Of a DNA stretch of 64,000 nucleotides, positions 3,325 to 41,337 are shown one piece after another. Location: sequence record PP449093.1; one strand, written 5' to 3'. This stretch comes from Escherichia coli phage phiS. The position numbers were made by a program, and so were the translations under genes. The notes under the pieces are model-generated. The model saw only the letters and a list, made by a program, of their open reading frames with translations, searched no databases and was not told the DNA's origin. Numbering within the stretch: the first letter of the stretch is position 1; the number at the start of each line of letters is the position of its first letter.

Positions 3325-3334
3325 GGTGATTATT

Positions 3335-3859
3335 ATGGAATGGGAAGTTGGTAAAACTTACAAGATTGAATGCGAAGCGTCGAAAGCCGAACTGACTAAA
3401 TTTTCGTCGTCTATTAACAGATGTATTGTTGACTTGTTGGCTGGTCGCCCGTTTAGGGTAGAAGACCTTGACGATGATGGTGATGTTAGAGAAATTACTA
3501 TTATTGGTAGTAATTTCGACTCTATGACGTTAAAAGAATCCCCTATTGGCTGTTCCGGTGTGTGGTTTTGGTCGGGTGAGCGTCGTTTCTTTACCGAAGT
3601 TACTATTGAACCTAAGATTCCAGATTCGGAAGAAAAAGAAGACCTAACTTTAGAACGCCTGGGTCTGCTTATGGAAGCCTACGACATTCAGTTGATCGAT
3701 AAGATGGGGTTACATAATAGCATTGCCAAAATTACTACCCTAGAAGGTATTAAGAGCGTACTGGATGGTATGCCTAGCCGGATCGGTGCTATCCGAGAAT
3801 ACAAACAAACGCGCGACCGTATGATCCAATTAGAATCACGTATCAAAAATGAGAGATGA
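3335..3859 (+). CDS. Paralog family member 1 (WExGKTY ... RRFFxEV domain), function unknown
   Basis: Starts MEWEVGKTYKIE and contains WFWSGERRFFTEV. RBS GAGGTGA. Shares its domain with the next three genes. Confidence 0.65.
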   Translation: MEWEVGKTYKIECEASKAELTKFSSSINRCIVDLLAGRPFRVEDLDDDGDVREITIIGSNFDSMTLKESPIGCSGVWFWSGERRFFTEVTIEPKIPDSEEKEDLTLERLGLLMEAYDIQLIDKMGLHNSIAKITTLEGIKSVLDGMPSRIGAIREYKQTRDRMIQLESRIKNER

Positions 3860-3863
3860 TATT

Positions 3864-4328
3864 ATGAAATGGGAAGCTGGTAAGACCTATGCGTGGAAAG
3901 ATGTAAAAGATGCAAACCAATTTTTTAAATGGTATGATGTTGATTATTTGAAATATCTGCGATTACCGTTTAAAGTTGCGTCGGTTGATGCGAAAAAAGG
4001 ATACGTGCGGTCTGTTTATCTTCATGATGGAACTTATATGAGTTCAACCGATGTAGGTCTATCTTGTTGGTTTCTGGATCATGACCGTAGCAGATTTGAA
4101 GAAATTATTATTCCAGAAGAATCTAAATTAATTGATCTTCTCAAGTTGGCGATGGATAATTATAAAATCCGCTTTGAATGCAAATCACATGCGGCTATCG
4201 GTGCTAACGCCTTGCGTCATATCTCCAGTTTTGAAGAGTTGAAAGATTTTCTTGACAAAATGCCGGAAAGGGTGCAAGCTATACAGGAAGCAGAGAAAGC
4301 ATTAAACGAACTTGATAAAATCGGTTAA
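3864..4328 (+). CDS. Paralog family member 2
   Basis: Starts MKWEAGKTYAWKD and contains CWFLDHDRSRFEEI. C-terminal helical tail FLDKMPERVQ. Confidence 0.65.
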   Translation: MKWEAGKTYAWKDVKDANQFFKWYDVDYLKYLRLPFKVASVDAKKGYVRSVYLHDGTYMSSTDVGLSCWFLDHDRSRFEEIIIPEESKLIDLLKLAMDNYKIRFECKSHAAIGANALRHISSFEELKDFLDKMPERVQAIQEAEKALNELDKIG

Positions 4329-4340
4329 GGGGAATATATT

Positions 4341-5165
4341 ATGAAATGGGAAATTGGTAAAACTTACACCTGGAAAGACGAAAACGCTAAAACTGAGTTT
4401 ATTACTAACGGAGAAGGTGTTCTTTCTCCACTTAACAGCGATATTAGTGCAGCTATTGGTGACACGCCATTTACCATCATCGAGATCGATGGCAACGGTT
4501 GGATTAATGCAATAGAGCTAGACGGTGTTTATCATACGGCGAAAACTGCTACAGGAAAAGACATTTGGACTGCAACATATTTCTTTAGTCCATTCGATAG
4601 AAAATTCTTTCGTGAAGTTGAAGAAGTTCCCCAGAAATGGGAAGTTGGTAAAACTTATACTTGGAAAGATGCGAATGCTATGACCGACTTCTGTCATTAT
4701 GCTGAAAACGTATCTAATCTTAATTATGTTATTGCACGAGCAATAAATTATAGACCTTTTACTGTTAAAAATGTTAGTCCATGTGGGCAAATTGATGTAA
4801 TTGAAATTGATGGTAAAGACCATACTCTAATGAGCGCAACCGAAGATAGAGACCATAAAGGAACTAGCTGGTTTATTGATTCTGATAGAAAATTCTTTCG
4901 TGAAGTAGAAGAATTGGAAGTTATAACCACTGATTCTAAAATCGTTGGACAGTTGAAACGTCTGTTTAGTAGTCGTTACGGCCTGACAATGGTTAAATTT
5001 GGCGAAGCAAATGAAGGTAAAACCTTTGAACGTTTCGATGACTTCATTACAGCACTTGACAAGATGGATGAAATCATGCAAGATCGCCAGAAGATTAAAG
5101 ACCTTCAAGAAGACATTAAACGTCGTGAAGTTGAATTTTTGATTGGTAAAGAGCGAGGTTGGTAA
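4341..5165 (+). CDS. Paralog family member 3, carrying two tandem copies of the domain
   Basis: MKWEIGKTYTWKD...FDRKFFREVEEV, then a second copy KWEVGKTYTWKD...SDRKFFREVEEL. Confidence 0.7.
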   Translation: MKWEIGKTYTWKDENAKTEFITNGEGVLSPLNSDISAAIGDTPFTIIEIDGNGWINAIELDGVYHTAKTATGKDIWTATYFFSPFDRKFFREVEEVPQKWEVGKTYTWKDANAMTDFCHYAENVSNLNYVIARAINYRPFTVKNVSPCGQIDVIEIDGKDHTLMSATEDRDHKGTSWFIDSDRKFFREVEELEVITTDSKIVGQLKRLFSSRYGLTMVKFGEANEGKTFERFDDFITALDKMDEIMQDRQKIKDLQEDIKRREVEFLIGKERGW

Positions 5166-5166
5166 T

Positions 5167-5664
5167 ATGTTTGTTGATGGTAATATGTTTGTTGTTGGTA
5201 TGACCTATCAGTGGAAAAACGAGCGAGCGCGGAAAGCCTTTGCAACCAGTGTTGCAAATGATGCAATAGCAGACTTTATCGGTGACCGTACATTTAAAGT
5301 TATCGCTTTTGAAAAAATTGCGTCAGATATCGAATATGTTTCTGCGATTGAAATTGATGGAAAAACATACACCTGTCGAGATGTTGATGATGTACGGGAA
5401 TACGCGCACAACTGGTTTTTGCAATCCGAAGAACGTTATTTTAAAGTGGTGTCGTCAGAACTGACTACTGATGCAATGTTGGAACAATTTTTCAACAACT
5501 ACGAAGTTTCTGTACGTCGCTATGGCGAAGAAGAAGTGTTTAAAATCGATGATTACAATCAGTTTAAACGAGTATTCGCCACTAAGTTACAGCGTGATTT
5601 TGAACGCGAGAATCGAATCAAGGAACTGGAAGAAGAACTAGAAAGATTAAAGGCTGAGAAATGA
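5167..5664 (+). CDS. Paralog family member 4 (divergent)
   Basis: MFVDGNMFVVGMTYQWKNE...NWFLQSEERYFKVV with a coiled-coil tail. The gene starts with an 18-nt near-tandem duplication. Confidence 0.6.
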   Translation: MFVDGNMFVVGMTYQWKNERARKAFATSVANDAIADFIGDRTFKVIAFEKIASDIEYVSAIEIDGKTYTCRDVDDVREYAHNWFLQSEERYFKVVSSELTTDAMLEQFFNNYEVSVRRYGEEEVFKIDDYNQFKRVFATKLQRDFERENRIKELEEELERLKAEK

Positions 5665-17472: not shown

Positions 17473-17504
17473 GAGTGTCTTTCGTAAGTGAAGGAGTTTA
17501 TATT

Positions 17505-20183
17505 ATGTATTTTCTGTCATGTGAGCGAGTAGGTGATAAGATCTACGAGCGTTATATTGATGATGCTGGACAAGAGCAAGAGCGTTACGTTGAATATACG
17601 CCAACTTTATTTCATCATGCCGCGCCTGGTATGGTTACGAATTATAAAGATATCTATGGCAAGCCTTGCATTGCTAAAAAATTCCCATCTATGAACGAGG
17701 CCAACAAATGGCGTAAAAAGATGGGGGAGATGGGGCAAGAGGCACTAGGGATGGATGATTTTATCATCTCCTATCTGTCCGATACGTATAAAGGAGAGAT
17801 TCGATATGACCGAAATAAAATCCGTGTAGCATGGGTTGATATTGAGGTCACTGCACCTGAATTTCCTAAACCAGAAGAAGCGAAATATCCTATCGATGCA
17901 ATTACGCATTATGATTCCGTACATGATCGTTTCTTTGTATTTGATTTGAAAGGAAAGAACGGTGAAATCTGGGAAGCAAGCAAATCTATTCTTCGACCTG
18001 ATATTGTAGAGCGCGTTGTTTATAACGTCTATGATACAGAAGATGAATTGCTATTAGAATACATCCGATTCTTTGAGGAAAACCGACCAGTTGGCTTCAC
18101 TGGCTGGAACACAGAAACATTCGATATTCCATATATCATTAAGCGTATCAGTAATAAGTTTGGAAGTCGAACGGCAAACCGATTAAGCCCGTGCGGTAAG
18201 ATTAAATCCCGAATCTCACAGGATGATTTTGGCAACGAGCGTGAAGCATTTACGATCATGGGGATCGAAAGCCTTGATTATATTGACCTGTACAAGAAAT
18301 TTAGCTTTACGACTCAACCAACATATGCATTAGATTATGTTGCTGAATATGAGACAGGAATCGGTAAGGTTGATTATGATGGTCCATTAAAGAAATTGCG
18401 TGATGACAACCATCAACTTTACATCGATTATAACATCGGCGACGTTGACCGTGTGCTGGCGATTGATAAAAAGCGTGGTTTTATTGATCTGGTGTATAGC
18501 CTATGTTTCTATGCAAAGATTAAATTTAACCATGTTTATAATCCGATGAAAGTATGGGATGCTATTATCTTCGGATCTCTGAAAGCAGAGGGTAAAGTAG
18601 TACCGGAAAATAAGATACAGCCTAAGCAGACGTATCCAGGCGCATTTGTAAAAGAACCTGTGCCGAATGCTTACCGTTGGATGATGAGCTTCGATCTCAC
18701 GAGTTTGTATCCTTCAATAATTAGGCAGGTAAATATTTCACCCGAAACTATCGCTGGGTCTTTTGATGCTGCACCGATGCACGAGTATATCAATAAAACT
18801 GCACCACGTCCGAGTGATGAGTATTCTTGCTCGCCTAACGGATGGATGTATAGAAAAGATATTCATGGTATCGTACCGATTGAGATTAAAAAGGTATTCG
18901 ATCAGCGTAAGCAGTACAAAAACATGATGTTGGCATGTGATCGCAATGCTGAACTATGTAAAGCGATTCTACACGATGAAAATCATGTTTATGGGGGAAC
19001 CATTAGCTATAGCGTTGAAGTGCGTCACGACTTCGATGAAGCGTTTAAATCGATGCTTTCTGAATTAAGCAAAGATACCTTAGAGAAATTGCTGGAAGAA
19101 TGTAAAGACGAGTCGATCTTGTGCAATACAAACCAGCTTTCTCGAAAAGTTTTGATCAACTCCCTTTATGGTGCGTTGGGGAATCCTAAATTCCGTTTTT
19201 ATGATCTCCGTAACGCTAGTGCGATCACCTTGTTCGGTCAGCTTGCAATTCAGTGGATTGAGCGTAAGATTAACGAATACTTAAACGAGCTTTGCGGAAC
19301 AACCGATTTTGCATATGTTCGTTATTGTGATACTGACTCCGTTTATGTGCTGGTTAACAATGTTGTTGATAAGGTTGGCGGGGAAGATCGTTTCGACGAT
19401 ACCGAAAAACTTGTTGACTTCCTTGATAATTTCGGTAAACATCGGATGGAACCTATTATCGACAAGGGATATCGCGAGTTATGCGAGTACATGAATAACT
19501 ATGAGCACTTGATGTTTATGGACCGCGAGGCAATTGCTGGTCCTCCGTTGAAATCTGCGGGTATCGGTGGATTCTGGACTGGTAAAAAGCGTTATGCTCT
19601 TAATGTTTGGGATATGGAAGGAACGCGCTTTGCTGAACCTAAGCTAAAAATCATGGGCTTGGAAACGCAACGTAGCTCCACCCCGAAAGCATGTCAGAAA
19701 TCACTGAAAGAATGTATTCGCCGTATGTTGCAGGAAGGTGAAGAGTCATTGCAGGAATACTACGGTATTTTTGAGCAAGAATTTAGAAAACTTGACTATC
19801 TTGATGTTGCTGCGGTATCATCTGCAAACAACCTACAGAAATACAGCGATTCAAACGGGTATCCGATTAAGGGTTGTCCGTATGCGGTTAAGAGTGTATT
19901 GTGTTATAATCGTAATGCTCGAAAATTCGGACTAGATCCGATTCGTGAAGGCGAGAAGGTTATGATTGTACCGCTTAAAGATCGAAATCCGTTTGGAGAA
20001 ATCTGTTTTGGTTGGTTGTCCGGTACTCGTATTCCTCCAGAAATTGAATCAGAGGTGTTAAAGTGGTTAGACTGGCCTTTGTTGTTTAATAAGACTTTCG
20101 TCAAACCACTGGAGAACATTACAACGGCTGCAAAGCTGCAATATGAAAAAGTGGCATCTCTTACAGACCTGTTTGACATTTAA
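17505..20183 (+). CDS. 43: DNA polymerase gp43 (family B)
   Basis: ERYIDD...VEY.PT.F, exonuclease motifs and the YCDTDS polymerase motif. Start moved to ATG 17505 after RBS AAGGAG. Confidence 0.95.
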   Translation: MYFLSCERVGDKIYERYIDDAGQEQERYVEYTPTLFHHAAPGMVTNYKDIYGKPCIAKKFPSMNEANKWRKKMGEMGQEALGMDDFIISYLSDTYKGEIRYDRNKIRVAWVDIEVTAPEFPKPEEAKYPIDAITHYDSVHDRFFVFDLKGKNGEIWEASKSILRPDIVERVVYNVYDTEDELLLEYIRFFEENRPVGFTGWNTETFDIPYIIKRISNKFGSRTANRLSPCGKIKSRISQDDFGNEREAFTIMGIESLDYIDLYKKFSFTTQPTYALDYVAEYETGIGKVDYDGPLKKLRDDNHQLYIDYNIGDVDRVLAIDKKRGFIDLVYSLCFYAKIKFNHVYNPMKVWDAIIFGSLKAEGKVVPENKIQPKQTYPGAFVKEPVPNAYRWMMSFDLTSLYPSIIRQVNISPETIAGSFDAAPMHEYINKTAPRPSDEYSCSPNGWMYRKDIHGIVPIEIKKVFDQRKQYKNMMLACDRNAELCKAILHDENHVYGGTISYSVEVRHDFDEAFKSMLSELSKDTLEKLLEECKDESILCNTNQLSRKVLINSLYGALGNPKFRFYDLRNASAITLFGQLAIQWIERKINEYLNELCGTTDFAYVRYCDTDSVYVLVNNVVDKVGGEDRFDDTEKLVDFLDNFGKHRMEPIIDKGYRELCEYMNNYEHLMFMDREAIAGPPLKSAGIGGFWTGKKRYALNVWDMEGTRFAEPKLKIMGLETQRSSTPKACQKSLKECIRRMLQEGEESLQEYYGIFEQEFRKLDYLDVAAVSSANNLQKYSDSNGYPIKGCPYAVKSVLCYNRNARKFGLDPIREGEKVMIVPLKDRNPFGEICFGWLSGTRIPPEIESEVLKWLDWPLLFNKTFVKPLENITTAAKLQYEKVASLTDLFDI

Positions 20184-23347: not shown

Positions 23348-23983
23348 ATGATCGCTAATGCTTTACCGCCAAAATGGATCGTAAGTCGCTTTTATACTCT
23401 CAAGGAAGGTAACGCACCTGATGGTCGTCCGATCCGAGATCTGTTTCTGGAGATGACTACAGCCGAAGCACAGTTTTATAATGATCTGACAGACGATAAG
23501 CCATTTCTCGTAAATTCGGTGGACCTTGATGGGAATGTCACATCAATTATCACGCATGATGGAACACTGAAAAATATTACTTCTCTGCGTGATCACGGTT
23601 GGGAAATTGCTTGTGTATTTCCTGCGGATGTACGCGGATTCTTTGATGAGGTATCTGACATTAAAGTAAATGCACTGGAACCATATGACGAGATCCCACC
23701 ACTGAAAGAAGAAAAAGAGTTGACACCGGAAGATGTAGATAGTACACTACACCCCGACCAATTTAAGAAGATTAGCGGTTTATGGACTGTTACCTTGTAT
23801 CCAACCGCATTAGGTCTAGAATTGGGTATGTCAACTTATTCTGATATTGATAACTGGAATAAGAGTATTGATAAAGATGTTGAAAAACAGCGAAATAATG
23901 CTAAAATGCAACTTAAAGAGAAACGCAAAGATCTTGAACGACAACTGAAAGAAACAAAACATTTGCTTTCTACATTCGCTTGA
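23348..23983 (+). CDS. Hypothetical protein (211 aa)
   Basis: ORF from the track, preceded by a GC hairpin gcgccctgcggggcgc. Confidence 0.55.
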   Translation: MIANALPPKWIVSRFYTLKEGNAPDGRPIRDLFLEMTTAEAQFYNDLTDDKPFLVNSVDLDGNVTSIITHDGTLKNITSLRDHGWEIACVFPADVRGFFDEVSDIKVNALEPYDEIPPLKEEKELTPEDVDSTLHPDQFKKISGLWTVTLYPTALGLELGMSTYSDIDNWNKSIDKDVEKQRNNAKMQLKEKRKDLERQLKETKHLLSTFA

Positions 23984-27132: not shown

Positions 27133-27636
27133 ATGCAATTTACACCAGAAGAACTTAACATCATTGATCAGGTGATGAACTCTAAAGAAAATATCGATAT
27201 GTCGATCCTTAATGGATTGATTGAAAAGACTGAGCGGTTAGTGCATCATGAAGCCTTGTATCGCGGTGTGAGCAAAAGAGAAGGTCGTAAGCTGGATACC
27301 TTAATTGTAGGCGATTCTTTCGTTGTAGAGCGTCCTATGAGCTTTACGCCACTGCAATCAACAGCAGAGGACTTTGCAACCGATGTTTATGCAACGGGAA
27401 AGATTATTGCAATAAAACCTACCAAGCCTTGCATGAATTATTACGAACATGCTATTGACCGAGTGGTGTCTAAAGAGTATGACAATCCGACTACTCGACT
27501 GTCTTTGTATGCTATGTTGGCAGATGAGCGCGAGTGCATATACAAGACAGGGACGACCATGATCCTTGATGAGATCGAGGAAGTTTACGCGTGTAATGGC
27601 GATCTGATAGAGATTTACAAATTTTCTTTAATTTAA
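27133..27636 (+). CDS. Hypothetical protein (167 aa); possible ModA/ModB-like ADP-ribosyltransferase
   Basis: Ordered YRG ... SFT/QST ... EIEEV motifs resemble the R-S-ExE ART triad. It occupies the T4 modA/modB neighbourhood. The function call is weak. Confidence 0.45.
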   Translation: MQFTPEELNIIDQVMNSKENIDMSILNGLIEKTERLVHHEALYRGVSKREGRKLDTLIVGDSFVVERPMSFTPLQSTAEDFATDVYATGKIIAIKPTKPCMNYYEHAIDRVVSKEYDNPTTRLSLYAMLADERECIYKTGTTMILDEIEEVYACNGDLIEIYKFSLI

Positions 27637-27697
27637 GTGTTGACAGCACAAACCAGATAGACAATAATACACACATACCAACTAAGGAGAATCAATT

Positions 27698-28453
27698 ATG
27701 AAACTGTTTGCTTTTAAATCTAACGAAGAATTGGCGCTGGTTGTTTTCCGGCTGAACTCTATCATGGCTGGTGCTTCACGTCGCAACAAAGACTTCTCTA
27801 TGAGCTTAGTCACTGTGCGTAACATTTACCGACAGACTCATTGCGCCTATTCCGGTGAGGCTTTCGGTGAAGGTGATGATGGACTCTCCTTAGAGCGCAT
27901 TGATTGCAATCTGGGATATGTTGATGGCAATGTAATTCCGGTTAAACTGAAATACAATTCTTTCCGTGGCAATCACACTATCGAATCTCTTAAAGAGATC
28001 CAGGAACTAGGAACTAACGGTAAACTTTCTGATGATGAAATTGCCCTACGTGCGAAGTACATCGAGTGGATCGAACTTAACGAGAATCGCATCAAAAATC
28101 AGGAAATGGCAATCGAAGAAAAGAAATTAGCAATCGAGCGCCACAAAAAGCACAACGAACCGGAGAAAGCAGAGGCAGCCGAGCGAGCGATTAAAAATAC
28201 TCTCTTCCGTATGGAAGAACGTTATCAGAAAATTGCCGATCTCAAGCAAGCCCTTAGCGAAATCAACAAGAAAGAAGAAAAACTTAAGGCTATTGCAAAC
28301 AATACCGAAATCGTGCTAAAATATACCAGCGTTTTGATTGAATCTCTTTCTAAGTATGAGAACTTAACGCCAGCACAAAAAGAACGCGTGAAATACGGGA
28401 TTCCGATTGATGCGTCGTGGATTGAATTGATGAAAGCGAAGGTAGGTTTATAA
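27698..28453 (+). CDS. HNH-motif protein with C-terminal coiled coil (251 aa)
   Basis: CAYSGEAF...LSLERID...GYVDGNVIPV...NSFRGN (HNH-like); the C-terminal half is K/E-rich and helical. Confidence 0.55.
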   Translation: MKLFAFKSNEELALVVFRLNSIMAGASRRNKDFSMSLVTVRNIYRQTHCAYSGEAFGEGDDGLSLERIDCNLGYVDGNVIPVKLKYNSFRGNHTIESLKEIQELGTNGKLSDDEIALRAKYIEWIELNENRIKNQEMAIEEKKLAIERHKKHNEPEKAEAAERAIKNTLFRMEERYQKIADLKQALSEINKKEEKLKAIANNTEIVLKYTSVLIESLSKYENLTPAQKERVKYGIPIDASWIELMKAKVGL

Positions 28454-37259: not shown

Positions 37260-37321
37260 TTCTGGTATAATGATGTGAATCGGGCGGCGATAGTCGCCCA
37301 ACTAATAGAGGAATGAATACT

Positions 37322-38314
37322 ATGACTAAAGCAAAAATCACCGTCTCTGACCGTAACGTTCAATGCCTGGATTCTGCGAAACAAATCAAACTGGCTAAAC
37401 AGTGGGGCGAAGGTAAGTTTACTACCCGCGAAGCACTTGCGGCAGCATTTGGTGTATCTCGTCGTACTGCTTCCCGTGTATTACTGATTCAGAAAGACGC
37501 AGTAGCGGAAGGTCGCAAGGCACTAGAAAAACGTAAAGCACGCCGTAAAACAAGTAAAGGAAAAGGCGGTGAACGCGCAAAAAAGCCCGTGACTACTACC
37601 TCAAAAATCGTAGCCATAGCCTCAACTAAGTTTATTACTATTACATGCGGTGACATTGTTTATATTGCTGATCCATCACATGTTAACTTTAAGGAAGCAC
37701 TGGAAGCAGTTAAGCAGAATGATTTTATTAAAGCAATTACGCTGATTGACATTAAGAAAGCGGTTGAAGTATATTATCACGGCGCTTTCCGTATCGAAAA
37801 TGGTATTGTGTATTATCATAATATTGTTCTTGATAATAATCTGACTCGTCGAGTTGTTGAGTCTATTAAAGAGAATAAGCCATATACGCACTATCTGAAC
37901 TTCTTTGAGAAGTGCAAGAAAAACCCTAGCCGTAAGGCGGTAGATCGTCTGTTTGACTTCTTAGAACACAACGACATTGAGATCGGGGAAGATGGTTGTT
38001 TCTATGCATGGAAACGTGTTGATGTTGATTATAAAGATTTCTTTACGCATACGTTTGATAATAGCCCAGGGCGCACGGTTAAAATGAAGCGTAAAGACGT
38101 TGGCCCAGATGATGATCGCACTTGCTCTAATGGCCTCCACGTTGCAGCGAAACACTATATTCCACACTATGGCGGTGGACGAGGCCGAATCATTAAATGT
38201 AAAGTTGATCCGCGTCACGTTGTAAGTATCCCGAAAGATTATGCGAATGCCAAAATGCGCTGTCATCGTTACTATGTGGTTGAAGATGTAACCGAAGGTT
38301 TTAGCCATTACTAA
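37322..38314 (+). CDS. rIIB: rIIB protein
   Basis: SRKAVDRLFDFLEHNDIEIGEDGCFYAWK...TCSNGLHVAAKHYIPHYG...DPRHVVSIPKDYANAKMRCHRYYVVEDVTE matches the T4 rIIB C-terminal region as I recall it. Confidence 0.85.
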   Translation: MTKAKITVSDRNVQCLDSAKQIKLAKQWGEGKFTTREALAAAFGVSRRTASRVLLIQKDAVAEGRKALEKRKARRKTSKGKGGERAKKPVTTTSKIVAIASTKFITITCGDIVYIADPSHVNFKEALEAVKQNDFIKAITLIDIKKAVEVYYHGAFRIENGIVYYHNIVLDNNLTRRVVESIKENKPYTHYLNFFEKCKKNPSRKAVDRLFDFLEHNDIEIGEDGCFYAWKRVDVDYKDFFTHTFDNSPGRTVKMKRKDVGPDDDRTCSNGLHVAAKHYIPHYGGGRGRIIKCKVDPRHVVSIPKDYANAKMRCHRYYVVEDVTEGFSHY

Positions 38315-38328
38315 CAGAGGAATTAATT

Positions 38329-38655
38329 ATGGTTGATATGAAAGTTACTTGCGAAAGTGCACATGTTGAAGTTGAAAGTAGCCAATATTCATTGCGTCCG
38401 TCCGGTCGCGTTACTGTGACTATGGATGATGTTGATTTGGTTAATAATGTTAGTGTTGAAGATATCGTTAATGAGTATGATCATAGCGAACTGCTAGACG
38501 CAATTCCTGAACATGTTGTGATCCAGCACGTAGTAAGCAATAATGATCCATCGACTTTCATTAAAGAATATGGCGCTGATGAAATGCTCGATGAAATTGG
38601 CGAAAAGATTGTTATTGCATGGCTTGAAAACAACGGCTATACTGTAGAACAATAA
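38329..38655 (+). CDS. Hypothetical highly acidic protein (108 aa)
   Basis: About 25 percent Asp/Glu and no Cys clusters; candidate DNA-mimic-type protein. Confidence 0.5.
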   Translation: MVDMKVTCESAHVEVESSQYSLRPSGRVTVTMDDVDLVNNVSVEDIVNEYDHSELLDAIPEHVVIQHVVSNNDPSTFIKEYGADEMLDEIGEKIVIAWLENNGYTVEQ

Positions 38656-38700
38656 TCAACATAGGCCGCTTTGCGCGGCCTTTCTTAGAGGGAATACATT

Positions 38701-38994
38701 ATGACGGTCACGGTTATTACCAAATACGACGACGAAAATGTGATTTACGGTGACGTGGTTGTTGTTCACGGTCGTAGCATGAAAGTTACTGGTAATTGTA
38801 AAGATGGTGCTATTATTTGCGGTGAATTGGTGAGAACAGTCAATCCTATCACCGACGAACAAAAGCGAGTTATTATCAGAAAACTTAAAGACAGTGGATA
38901 TTGTAACGTCGTGGTGATTCAAGAAAAAATTGAAGTAGGCCAGTTATACACAAACCAGAAAACAATTCCAGTATCAATGATAAAAGGCGGTTAA
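38701..38994 (+). CDS. Hypothetical protein (97 aa)
   Basis: ORF from the track; its 3' end lies inside a 30-bp tandem duplication. Confidence 0.5.
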   Translation: MTVTVITKYDDENVIYGDVVVVHGRSMKVTGNCKDGAIICGELVRTVNPITDEQKRVIIRKLKDSGYCNVVVIQEKIEVGQLYTNQKTIPVSMIKGG

Positions 38995-39025
38995 TTTCCA
39001 GTATCAATGATAAAAGGCGGTTAAT
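38966..39025. repeat. Perfect 30-bp tandem direct duplication (two copies)
   Basis: ttccagtatcaatgataaaaggcggttaat occurs twice back to back, spanning the stop codon of the 38701 ORF. Confidence 0.85.
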
Positions 39026-39026
39026 A

Positions 39027-39389
39027 ATGCTAGGTCATTCTAAAATAGAAGATTGCTCATTCAGAGCAATGAAAGATGATTTTTCAGTCCTGTACGCGTC
39101 TATCCGAGAGTTGTTTGTAGATTTTAAGCAATTCAGAGAATACAAAGGCGTTAAGATGCGGGAGTGGGTATTCTGGCCTTTCTATATCATTACTCTGTTT
39201 TCTATGGTATTTTGTTTTGTCGGGATCACGATCGCTAGCTTTGTTACTTGCGCTTTCCTGATTATCCGGTGTATCATGTTTGCTTTGATTGCTGCCCCGT
39301 TTATTGTTTCAATCCTTCCGTTAAAATGGCTATTGGATTGGGCTGATAAATCTGATAAAGTAAAGAATGTGATTTGTAAGCGTGTATGA
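39027..39389 (+). CDS. Integral membrane protein (120 aa); possible ac counterpart by position
   Basis: Two or three hydrophobic helices (FYIITLFSMVFCFVGITIASFVTCAFLII, ALIAAPFIVSILPL); directly upstream of gene 52. Confidence 0.5.
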   Translation: MLGHSKIEDCSFRAMKDDFSVLYASIRELFVDFKQFREYKGVKMREWVFWPFYIITLFSMVFCFVGITIASFVTCAFLIIRCIMFALIAAPFIVSILPLKWLLDWADKSDKVKNVICKRV

Positions 39390-39396
39390 GGTGAAG

Positions 39397-40743
39397 ATGA
39401 ATAAATCAGTTACTTACCGTAGCCTTGAAAGCATTGTACATAATGAAGCTAAGGAATATGCGATCTATTCTGCCGAGGAACGCGGGATTCCTCAATTAGT
39501 TGATGGTCTTAAACCAGTGCAACGCTTTGTTATGGAATGTGCTTTGCAAAAGAGTAAAGGCGACCGTAAGAAATTCCGTAAGATGGCAGATATTGGATCT
39601 GGTGTTGCTGAGTTGGGTTATCACCACGGGGAAACTAATGCCGTAGAAGCCGGATCACTCATGGCGAATACATGGAGCAATAATACTCCACTGCTTGATG
39701 GTCAAGGTAACTTCGGATCGCGTTTAGTCCAGAAAGCAGGTGCGGCACGTTATATCTTTGCTCGTGTGCATGAAAACTTCTTTAAAATCTATAAAGATAT
39801 GAATTGCGCACCTAAGCACGAAGATCTGGAACACATCCCGCCAGCGTTCTACTTGCCAGTTGTTCCAATGGTATTGGCTAACGGTATTAGTGGTATTGCT
39901 ACAGGGTATAAAACTGACATTTTACCGCATTCACTGGAAAGCCTTATTGAATGCACAGAGCTAGCACTTGCCGGAAAACTGGATAAAGAACCTAGTGTTC
40001 AATTCCCGAAATTCACGGGTAAAGTTATCCCACGAGATGATCGCGATGGTGTGATTCTTGAGGGTACATATGAACTAAACGGCAAGACTAAACTGACAAT
40101 ATCAGAAGTTCCTTATAAGTTCGACCGTGAAGAATATGTAGCGGTACTGGATGCACTGGAAGAAAAAGATCTGATTGTCTCATATAATGACCGTTGCTCT
40201 AAGGACGGATTCAGATTTGAAGTAACACTGAAACGCGATTATTTCAAAAGCGAAGATGAATCCGCTCGACATGAGCAGATCATGAAGGATTTTAAACTAA
40301 CGCAGTTAGTAGCACAGAATATCGTAGTGGTTAATGAACGTGGTTTAGTCGAAGTATTCGAGAAAGCGAGCGATCTGATCCGTCGATTCGTCGAAATCCG
40401 CTTAGGCTATATAGACAAACGCATTGAATTGATGCAAGCGGAAACGCTAGAAGCATACAATTATGCAATGGCTAAAGCCGAATTTATCGACCGCGTAATT
40501 AAGGGCGAAATCGAGCTACAGGGCAAGAAAAAGGCCGAGGTAATGCAATCCATCAATGGACATGAAAAACTGCGTCCATACGCCGATAAGCTAGTTTCTA
40601 TGCCATTGTATAGCGTTACTCAAGAAGAGTATGAACGACTGGTCAAAGATGCCGATAAACATCATAGTGAATATGAGTATTGGACAAAGACGACCGCAAT
40701 GAAGGAATATAAGAAAGATCTTAAAGAACTTAAGAAGGGTTGA
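39397..40743 (+). CDS. 52: DNA topoisomerase II medium subunit gp52 (GyrA-like)
   Basis: DGLKPVQRF, GYHHGE, LLDGQGNFGSR and RYIFARV match T4 gp52 as I recall it. Confidence 0.9.
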   Translation: MNKSVTYRSLESIVHNEAKEYAIYSAEERGIPQLVDGLKPVQRFVMECALQKSKGDRKKFRKMADIGSGVAELGYHHGETNAVEAGSLMANTWSNNTPLLDGQGNFGSRLVQKAGAARYIFARVHENFFKIYKDMNCAPKHEDLEHIPPAFYLPVVPMVLANGISGIATGYKTDILPHSLESLIECTELALAGKLDKEPSVQFPKFTGKVIPRDDRDGVILEGTYELNGKTKLTISEVPYKFDREEYVAVLDALEEKDLIVSYNDRCSKDGFRFEVTLKRDYFKSEDESARHEQIMKDFKLTQLVAQNIVVVNERGLVEVFEKASDLIRRFVEIRLGYIDKRIELMQAETLEAYNYAMAKAEFIDRVIKGEIELQGKKKAEVMQSINGHEKLRPYADKLVSMPLYSVTQEEYERLVKDADKHHSEYEYWTKTTAMKEYKKDLKELKKG

Positions 40744-40949
40744 TTATGAAAGAATATCCAGAAGGCGGTTATATTGCATTTGTGTACAACAATAAAAAGA
40801 TTGTGCCAATGGTCGTTGAGACTATGGAAGAAGCCAACCGGATCACTATTGAATCTCTGAATAAGTTAGCAGAGATAACAAACACACCAGAACACAGAGC
40901 AACGATAGACTATTTGATGAAAGAATTTTTGGAGGGAAAGTATGACTGA
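40740..40949 (+). CDS. Hypothetical protein (69 aa)
   Basis: ORF from the track. Confidence 0.5.
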   Translation: MIMKEYPEGGYIAFVYNNKKIVPMVVETMEEANRITIESLNKLAEITNTPEHRATIDYLMKEFLEGKYD

Positions 40950-41337
40950 ACGACGCATTACTTCAAGTAATTTAGGCAATCATCATGCATGGATGGTTGA
41001 TCCAGACAAAAATCCTTATAAACTGTACGACACAACAATTCAACCGTGGGATACTGGCGTATGGAAAACATCACCGACAACAGCACCTATTATGACCGAT
41101 CCGAAACCGATTAGCCCGATGGCGGAACCAGTACAGATTAAGCCGTTACCATACCAGATAACGACGAATAGCATCGCCAACAAGCAAGAAAATGATATTG
41201 ATATGATCTACGAGATGATCAAACTTTGGCGTGATGTTTATCTTGGTGTTCTTTGCAACACAGATAAAAGTGCACATGCGGCAGCGGTACTTGCATCTCA
41301 TGCGGTAGACGAAGCCAAAAAGAAATTTAGTAAGTAA
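40942..41337 (+). CDS. Hypothetical protein (131 aa)
   Basis: ORF from the track. Confidence 0.5.
   Translation: MTERRITSSNLGNHHAWMVDPDKNPYKLYDTTIQPWDTGVWKTSPTTAPIMTDPKPISPMAEPVQIKPLPYQITTNSIANKQENDIDMIYEMIKLWRDVYLGVLCNTDKSAHAAAVLASHAVDEAKKKFSK

Follow-up and report, generated by a model that had tools for sequence, protein, structure and literature searches.

A perfect 30-bp tandem repeat at the ORF97/ORF120 boundary of Escherichia coli phage phiS: recent duplication or assembly artefact

The window, a 64-kb stretch of DNA (64,000 nucleotides), is part of the 168,209-bp NCBI record of Escherichia coli phage phiS, one of the RB49-like T-even phages of the genus Krischvirus. In the region considered here, the window is 97-98.6% identical to other Krischvirus coliphages. 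Five genes follow each other on the plus strand: rIIB (37313-38314; protein WWV92240), ORF108 (38329-38655), ORF97 (38701-38994; WWV92242.1), ORF120 (39027-39389; WWV92243.1), and the gene of the topoisomerase II medium subunit gp52 (39397-40743; WWV92244). ORF97 is the homologue of RB49p271 and phi1 ORF271 (phrog_14759), and ORF120 is that of RB49p270 and phi1 ORF270 (phrog_16033). ORF108, ORF97, and ORF120 belong to PHROG families without assigned function, and searches of Pfam gave no match for any of the three. ORF120 is hydrophobic, and its counterpart in phage W115 is annotated as a putative membrane protein. An ORF on the minus strand (38885-39007, 40 aa, TTG start) is regarded as spurious, since its neighbours are all on the plus strand and it is unannotated in the relatives' records inspected.

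Between ORF108 and ORF97, a GC-rich, perfectly palindromic hairpin (AGGCCGC-TTTGC-GCGGCCT, 38663-38681) parts rIIB and ORF108 from the group formed by ORF97, ORF120, and gp52; the records of GEC-3S and Makalu_002 label it a terminator, and it lies outside the duplication. At the start of gp52 (39397-39420), the relatives show two lengths of the protein, 448 aa as in phiS and 454 aa as in MIZ6 and G5211. This difference is an 18-nt N-terminal indel and not a tandem repeat.

At the ORF97/ORF120 boundary, which lies after rIIB and before topoisomerase gene 52, positions 38966-38995 and 38996-39025 read as the same 30-mer, TTCCAGTATCAATGATAAAAGGCGGTTAAT, placed head to tail with 0 mismatches. A perfect 30-bp tandem duplication had been claimed here in the initial annotation, and it is borne out both by direct reading of the window and by TRF (period 30, 2.0 copies, 100% matches; at 120, its score exceeds every other in the 64-kb window). 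When up to 3 mismatches were allowed, a pattern search of the window returned the two tandem copies only, and the pair is the only perfect direct repeat of at least 24 nt in the 64 kb. The 30-mer repeat occurred 0 times in shuffled sequence (n=100), and chance cannot explain a perfect 2.0-copy repeat of 30 bp. The repeat is not extended at either edge: base 38965 is an a while the last base of the unit is a t, and base 39026 is an a while the first base of the unit is a t. Since neither flanking base extends the repeat, the junction has 0 nt of microhomology. AAT motifs near the repeat are spaced by 29 or 32 nt, not 30. The novel junction (38995/38996) passes from GGTTAAT to TTCCAG; written across both sides it consists of GGCGGTTAAT on the left and TTCCNGTATCAATG on the right, and GGCGGTTAATTTCCAGTATC is the junction string of the two-copy form.

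Copy 1 (38966-38995, plus strand) is the native 3' end of ORF97, encoding PVSMIKGG followed by the stop TAA (38992-38994), and it also holds a Shine-Dalgarno (SD) motif, AAAGGCGG, which is now orphaned. Copy 2 (38996-39025, plus strand) is the native 5' leader of ORF120 with its SD, and it ends one base short of the ATG at 39027. The unit had thus been correctly read as the last eight codons and the stop of the ORF at 38701, with a copy directly before the gene at 39027. The start of that gene had also been called RBS-less, which is wrong. Its SD (AAAGGCGGU) lies inside the repeat unit, 5-6 nt before the ATG, and the annotation of Makalu_002 places a ribosome-binding site there too. The predicted pairing of the ORF120 leader with the 3' end of 16S rRNA amounts to -7.8 kcal/mol, compared with weaker values of -6.0 to -6.9 kcal/mol for three neighbouring genes and a mean of -2.4 kcal/mol for random 22-mers of the window, of which approximately 4% reach -7 or lower.

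In all relatives, the single-copy arrangement is …AAAGGCGGT TAA TA ATG…, with stop and start 2 nt apart. Since the two genes abut in this way, the final 30 nt of ORF97 also serve as the ORF120 leader and include its SD. In phiS, the distance from stop to start is 32 nt. The left flank runs through copy 1 and the right flank proceeds from copy 2; therefore both ORFs and the leader are kept, and neither the ORF97 protein nor the ORF120 protein with its 30-nt leader is altered. The wider gap probably loosens the translational coupling between ORF97 and ORF120, as judged from the arrangement of the two genes. Copy 2 also contains a mini-ORF (ATG 39007 to TAA 39024, encoding MIKGG) whose stop lies 2 nt before the ATG of ORF120. 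This mini-ORF is incidental; the orphaned SD of copy 1 lies 15 nt from its ATG, a spacing too wide, by established spacing rules, for initiation to be efficient. Ribosomal bypass or readthrough was considered, given that the insertion keeps the frame and that GGT TAA ends each copy. It can be ruled out, since hopping over or reading through the first TAA adds FPVSMIKGG at most before TAA TAA is reached.

As had been suggested, the junction was compared with related genomes, and every relative examined proved to be single-copy, including contigs with the identical 30-mer allele. All of the 58 matching Krischvirus records in GenBank carry one copy, and the span around the junction is 30 bases shorter than in the window; where the longer gp52 variant is present, 18-19 bases are regained away from the junction. 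A 120-nt probe centred on the repeat did not align across it in one piece in any of the 55 records that it matched, and base-by-base alignment of ten diverse records showed a clean gap of 30 nt relative to the window. The metagenomic set comprised 18 Logan/ENA loci and 2 IMG/VR contigs, 20 in all. Single copies were found in all eight Logan contigs that encode the exact ORF97 of phiS, in all ten contigs that encode its exact ORF120, and in both IMG/VR contigs examined. The feature therefore amounts to a segment that related genomes have once and phiS has twice, side by side and head to tail. A different variant of the same junction occurs in UPWr_E1 (L009, approximately 325-331, homologous to window 38992-38995), in which a 1-nt deletion in the stop region of ORF97 gives GGTT-ATAATG; there the ORF97 counterpart is annotated with 103 aa and overlaps the ORF120 homologue.

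Compared with the GenBank relatives, the 30-mer of phiS has one substitution, ATGATA for ATGATG (Met to Ile). The Ile allele is present in both copies of phiS, and the same 30-mer occurs once in each of seven contigs; therefore, the substitution came before the duplication. The closest haplotype (L011, L013, L014, and L021) equals the window over 38956-39605 (650 bp) except for the extra 30 bp. As it is continuous across the repeat, a mosaic or recombination breakpoint at the junction is ruled out. Its identity to the window falls from approximately 39600, about 600 bp to the right of the junction, and most strongly at 40800-41100.

The novel junction, searched for both in allele-specific and in allele-independent form, had no match in IMG/VR, the JGI metagenomes, or the GTDB genomes, while the positive control, the single-copy arrangement, recovered contigs. 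Look-ups by exact protein for an independent assembly of phiS found only contigs of relatives with 96-99% identity. The gp52 and rIIB sequences specific to phiS occur in one NCBI record only, and the gp52 of phiS is absent from the contig index.

That perfect identity implies either a very recent event or an artefact, as had been claimed from the sequence, is in agreement with the single copy in every relative examined. About even is the chance that the first alternative holds, namely that the repeat is a genuine, very recent, phiS-private tandem duplication of 30 bp (10 codons), which would be present in the phage DNA itself and not in the assembly alone. Its origin can be potentially described as follows. 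The ancestral sequence, as found in all relatives, is …AAAGGCGGTTAATAATG, in which ORF97 shares its last 30 nt with ORF120 as the leader for translation initiation. At this tight boundary of two small early-region genes, an error of replication or recombination may have duplicated the shared segment, so that each gene would have obtained its own copy while both proteins and the SD of ORF120 were kept. Such an event would be near-neutral and, being so, could persist in a phage stock.

A placement that leaves the proteins unchanged is what selection would leave behind. According to the homologous ELT4 annotation, approximately 10% of random 30-bp placements are protein-neutral, so that this argument carries a weight of no more than about 10:1, and probably far less. 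It bears equally on the possibility of an assembly or finishing artefact, as a join at a random place would leave all proteins unchanged in only approximately 10% of cases. That possibility is given a somewhat less than even chance. It supposes that an overlap of k-1 nucleotides was joined untrimmed and the sequence then re-opened elsewhere: in a circularly permuted genome of the T4 type, the ends of a contig, or two contigs, would have overlapped by 30 nt with k = 31. The value k = 31 is widely used in de Bruijn assemblers, in which the end overlap is k-1 = 30, and the length of the repeat is suggestive in this respect. The two copies are 100% identical and the junction is found in one record only, against 58 GenBank genomes, 20 contigs, and three whole-collection scans, as would be the case for an artefact. 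No microhomology, hairpin, or recombination breakpoint points to a biological mechanism; and no publication was found on phiS or on the assembly and validation of its genome. Perfect identity, uniqueness to one record, and the k-1 length fit an artefact as well as they fit a real event.

Other observations are less easily reconciled with a faulty join. SPAdes, the most common pipeline for phages, leaves overlaps of other lengths (21, 33, 55, 77, or 127, not 30). Since WWV92242 and WWV92243 are consecutive across the repeat, it lies within the record and away from its ends, so a rotation or a manual join must be assumed. The window has the 30-mer at no other place, and the 120-nt stretch around it hits a single site in the record of each relative; a contig break induced by a repeat is therefore not expected here. 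There is also no second join of this kind in the 64 kb. Relative to ELT4, 37 small indels were counted in 50 kb at approximately 97% identity. With so few, a noisy long-read assembly is unsupported, and the phiS assembly looks otherwise clean.

A natural precedent for a real duplication exists in the same genus. The gp32 of ELT4 (L032, CDS 27336-28310; window approximately 60940) carries an in-frame insertion of 27 nt that is 78% identical to the adjoining 27 nt, and this is the only other indel of at least 6 nt in the 50 kb of aligned blocks. It is an older, imperfect tandem duplication and demonstrates that Krischviruses undergo such events naturally. The manner in which a duplication would have arisen in phiS is less typical. 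Replication slippage had been named as one origin of the repeat, and while the choice between a recent event and an artefact stands, slippage in its classical form is weakened, as the zero microhomology and the lack of a hairpin are atypical for slipped-strand duplication and argue against a real event.

Several other origins can be set aside. Folding of the single-copy sequence as DNA gave -0.7 and -1.5 kcal/mol for the two strands, with z-scores of +1.07 and +0.33 relative to shuffles, and no DNA or RNA structure at the repeat exceeded the shuffled background. As the fold energies do not exceed those of the shuffles, slippage promoted by a hairpin is ruled out. A target-site duplication left by an excised mobile element is also ruled out, as nothing lies between the copies and known target-site duplications are far shorter than 30 bp. 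No promoter-like (sigma-70) or terminator-like site was detected in 38966-39025, and no Rfam match over the repeat attained the gathering score. Nor does the genus as a whole conserve the 30-bp repeat as a regulatory element. Two sub-threshold Rfam matches were found in 38300-39500, neither overlapping the repeat; one of them, a ribosomal S15 leader at 38398-38490 (plus strand, 25.5 bits against a gathering score of 39.5, E = 0.0017), lies within the coding sequence of ORF108 and is most likely due to chance.

It is also conceivable, though very improbable, that the duplication is real and was selected as a change in ORF120 expression that was advantageous on the isolation host. The stop of ORF97 and the start of ORF120 would have been separated, and two SD motifs would be available, as a stand-by site or by way of the mini-ORF MIKGG. 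The precise preservation of both ORFs and the duplication of a strong SD agree with such a change, as does the mini-ORF of copy 2, which recreates the ancestral distance of 2 nt between stop and start. For the mRNA with two copies, the predicted fold around the first SD is somewhat more stable, at -22.5 kcal/mol compared with -15.7 kcal/mol, over a longer sequence. On the other hand, the duplication occurs in one genome only, with no spread or recurrence seen in the collections searched; the 15 nt between the first SD and the ATG of the mini-ORF would hamper efficient initiation; and nothing sets the duplication apart from neutrality. An adaptive one-step 'un-overlapping' of coupled early genes, by which ORF120 would have gained an independent leader with a stand-by SD, is accordingly thought highly unlikely. 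If it were true, the dosage of ORF120 relative to ORF97 would be changed, and the locus would be a case of compact phage gene-junction remodelling caught in the act.

The window contains other repeats. At 3326-5664, there is a diverged tandem array of paralogous small genes (ORFs 3326-3859, 3849-4328, 4341-5165, and 5143-5664), each of which opens with M.WE.GKTY.WKD. The ORF at 4341-5165 contains the module twice, in diverged form, and a 30-nt motif recurs in it at 4596 and 4884 (spacing 288 nt). The array as a whole is approximately 287 nt longer than in ELT4, which is a copy-number difference within it. This array counts as support for natural tandem duplication in the lineage. At the start of the ORF at 5143-5664, a repeat with a period of 18 nt (5160-5200, 2.3 copies, 95%) encodes GNMFVDGNMFVVG; it is conserved in ELT4 and is therefore old, not a recent event. 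A further difference from ELT4 concerns the DNA polymerase, which is one ORF of 902 aa in the window (17475-20183). In ELT4 it is split by an insertion of approximately 1.1 kb (window break 18700/18707; L031 17918-19039) with an ORF of 825 nt; the insertion is probably mobile, for instance of the homing-endonuclease or intron-like type. Dispersed repeats of 24-26 nt are also present, containing TATAAT at 1483, 61149, and 62440, and TTGACA at 23711, 42503, and 62411. These repeats with the sigma-70 -10 and -35 hexamers are probably the early-promoter/PeSL motifs of RB49 and phi1 (PMC2839356).

Overall, the 30-bp repeat is an ordinary feature, either a private indel without effect on any protein, in a phage genus that is well sampled, or a finishing error, and its biological weight is very small. 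Its practical value is that of a quality flag for the phiS record at the position of the repeat, since untrimmed overlaps recur among the errors of deposited phage genomes. A real duplication would illustrate, in a small way, that a tandem duplication across a gene boundary can be protein-neutral and can uncouple overlapping gene signals.

Among known systems, slipped-strand tandem duplications of the Streisinger type are classic in the rII and lysozyme genes of T4. Like these, the phiS repeat is head-to-tail and ancestrally single-copy, it adjoins the rII region of a T-even-type phage, and its copies would be identical because the event is recent. However, the classical Streisinger model requires a short direct repeat that brackets the duplicated unit, while the phiS repeat has exactly 2.0 copies, 0 nt of microhomology, and no hairpin. 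Given the lack of microhomology, either a mechanism independent of it, such as template switching or end joining, would have been at work, or the feature has no biological origin. The latter case resembles the untrimmed end overlaps that de Bruijn assemblers leave in circular or circularly permuted genomes. The phiS repeat is likewise perfect, private, without microhomology, and of length k-1 for k = 31; but such overlaps are normally found at both ends of a record, whereas this one is internal and needs an extra step of rotation or joining.

PeSL (promoter-early plus stem-loop) cassettes are responsible for indels and for the shuffling of genes in RB49, phi1, and JSE (Arbiol et al. 2010, PMC2839356; PMC4122927). 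They are dispersed conserved motifs, composed of a sigma-70 consensus promoter and a stem-loop, which act by homologous recombination (PMC2839356). The phiS repeat shares with them the genus and a repeat-associated, small-scale plasticity of the genome between small early genes. Unlike PeSLs, its 30-mer is found only here and is single-copy in the relatives, and it carries no promoter-like site or stem-loop. With no promoter or terminator site, no stable fold, and no other copy in the window, its identity as a PeSL element is ruled out.

The ancestral junction itself is of a familiar kind. The early regions of T4-type phages contain coupled gene pairs whose stop and start codons overlap or lie a few nucleotides apart, with the SD inside the upstream gene. 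The ORF97/ORF120 junction of every relative, GGT TAA TA ATG with the SD AAAGGCGG inside ORF97, corresponds to this arrangement. In phiS, by contrast, the pair stands 30 nt further apart with the SD kept, and it appears from this spacing that coupling by termination and reinitiation is probably weakened.
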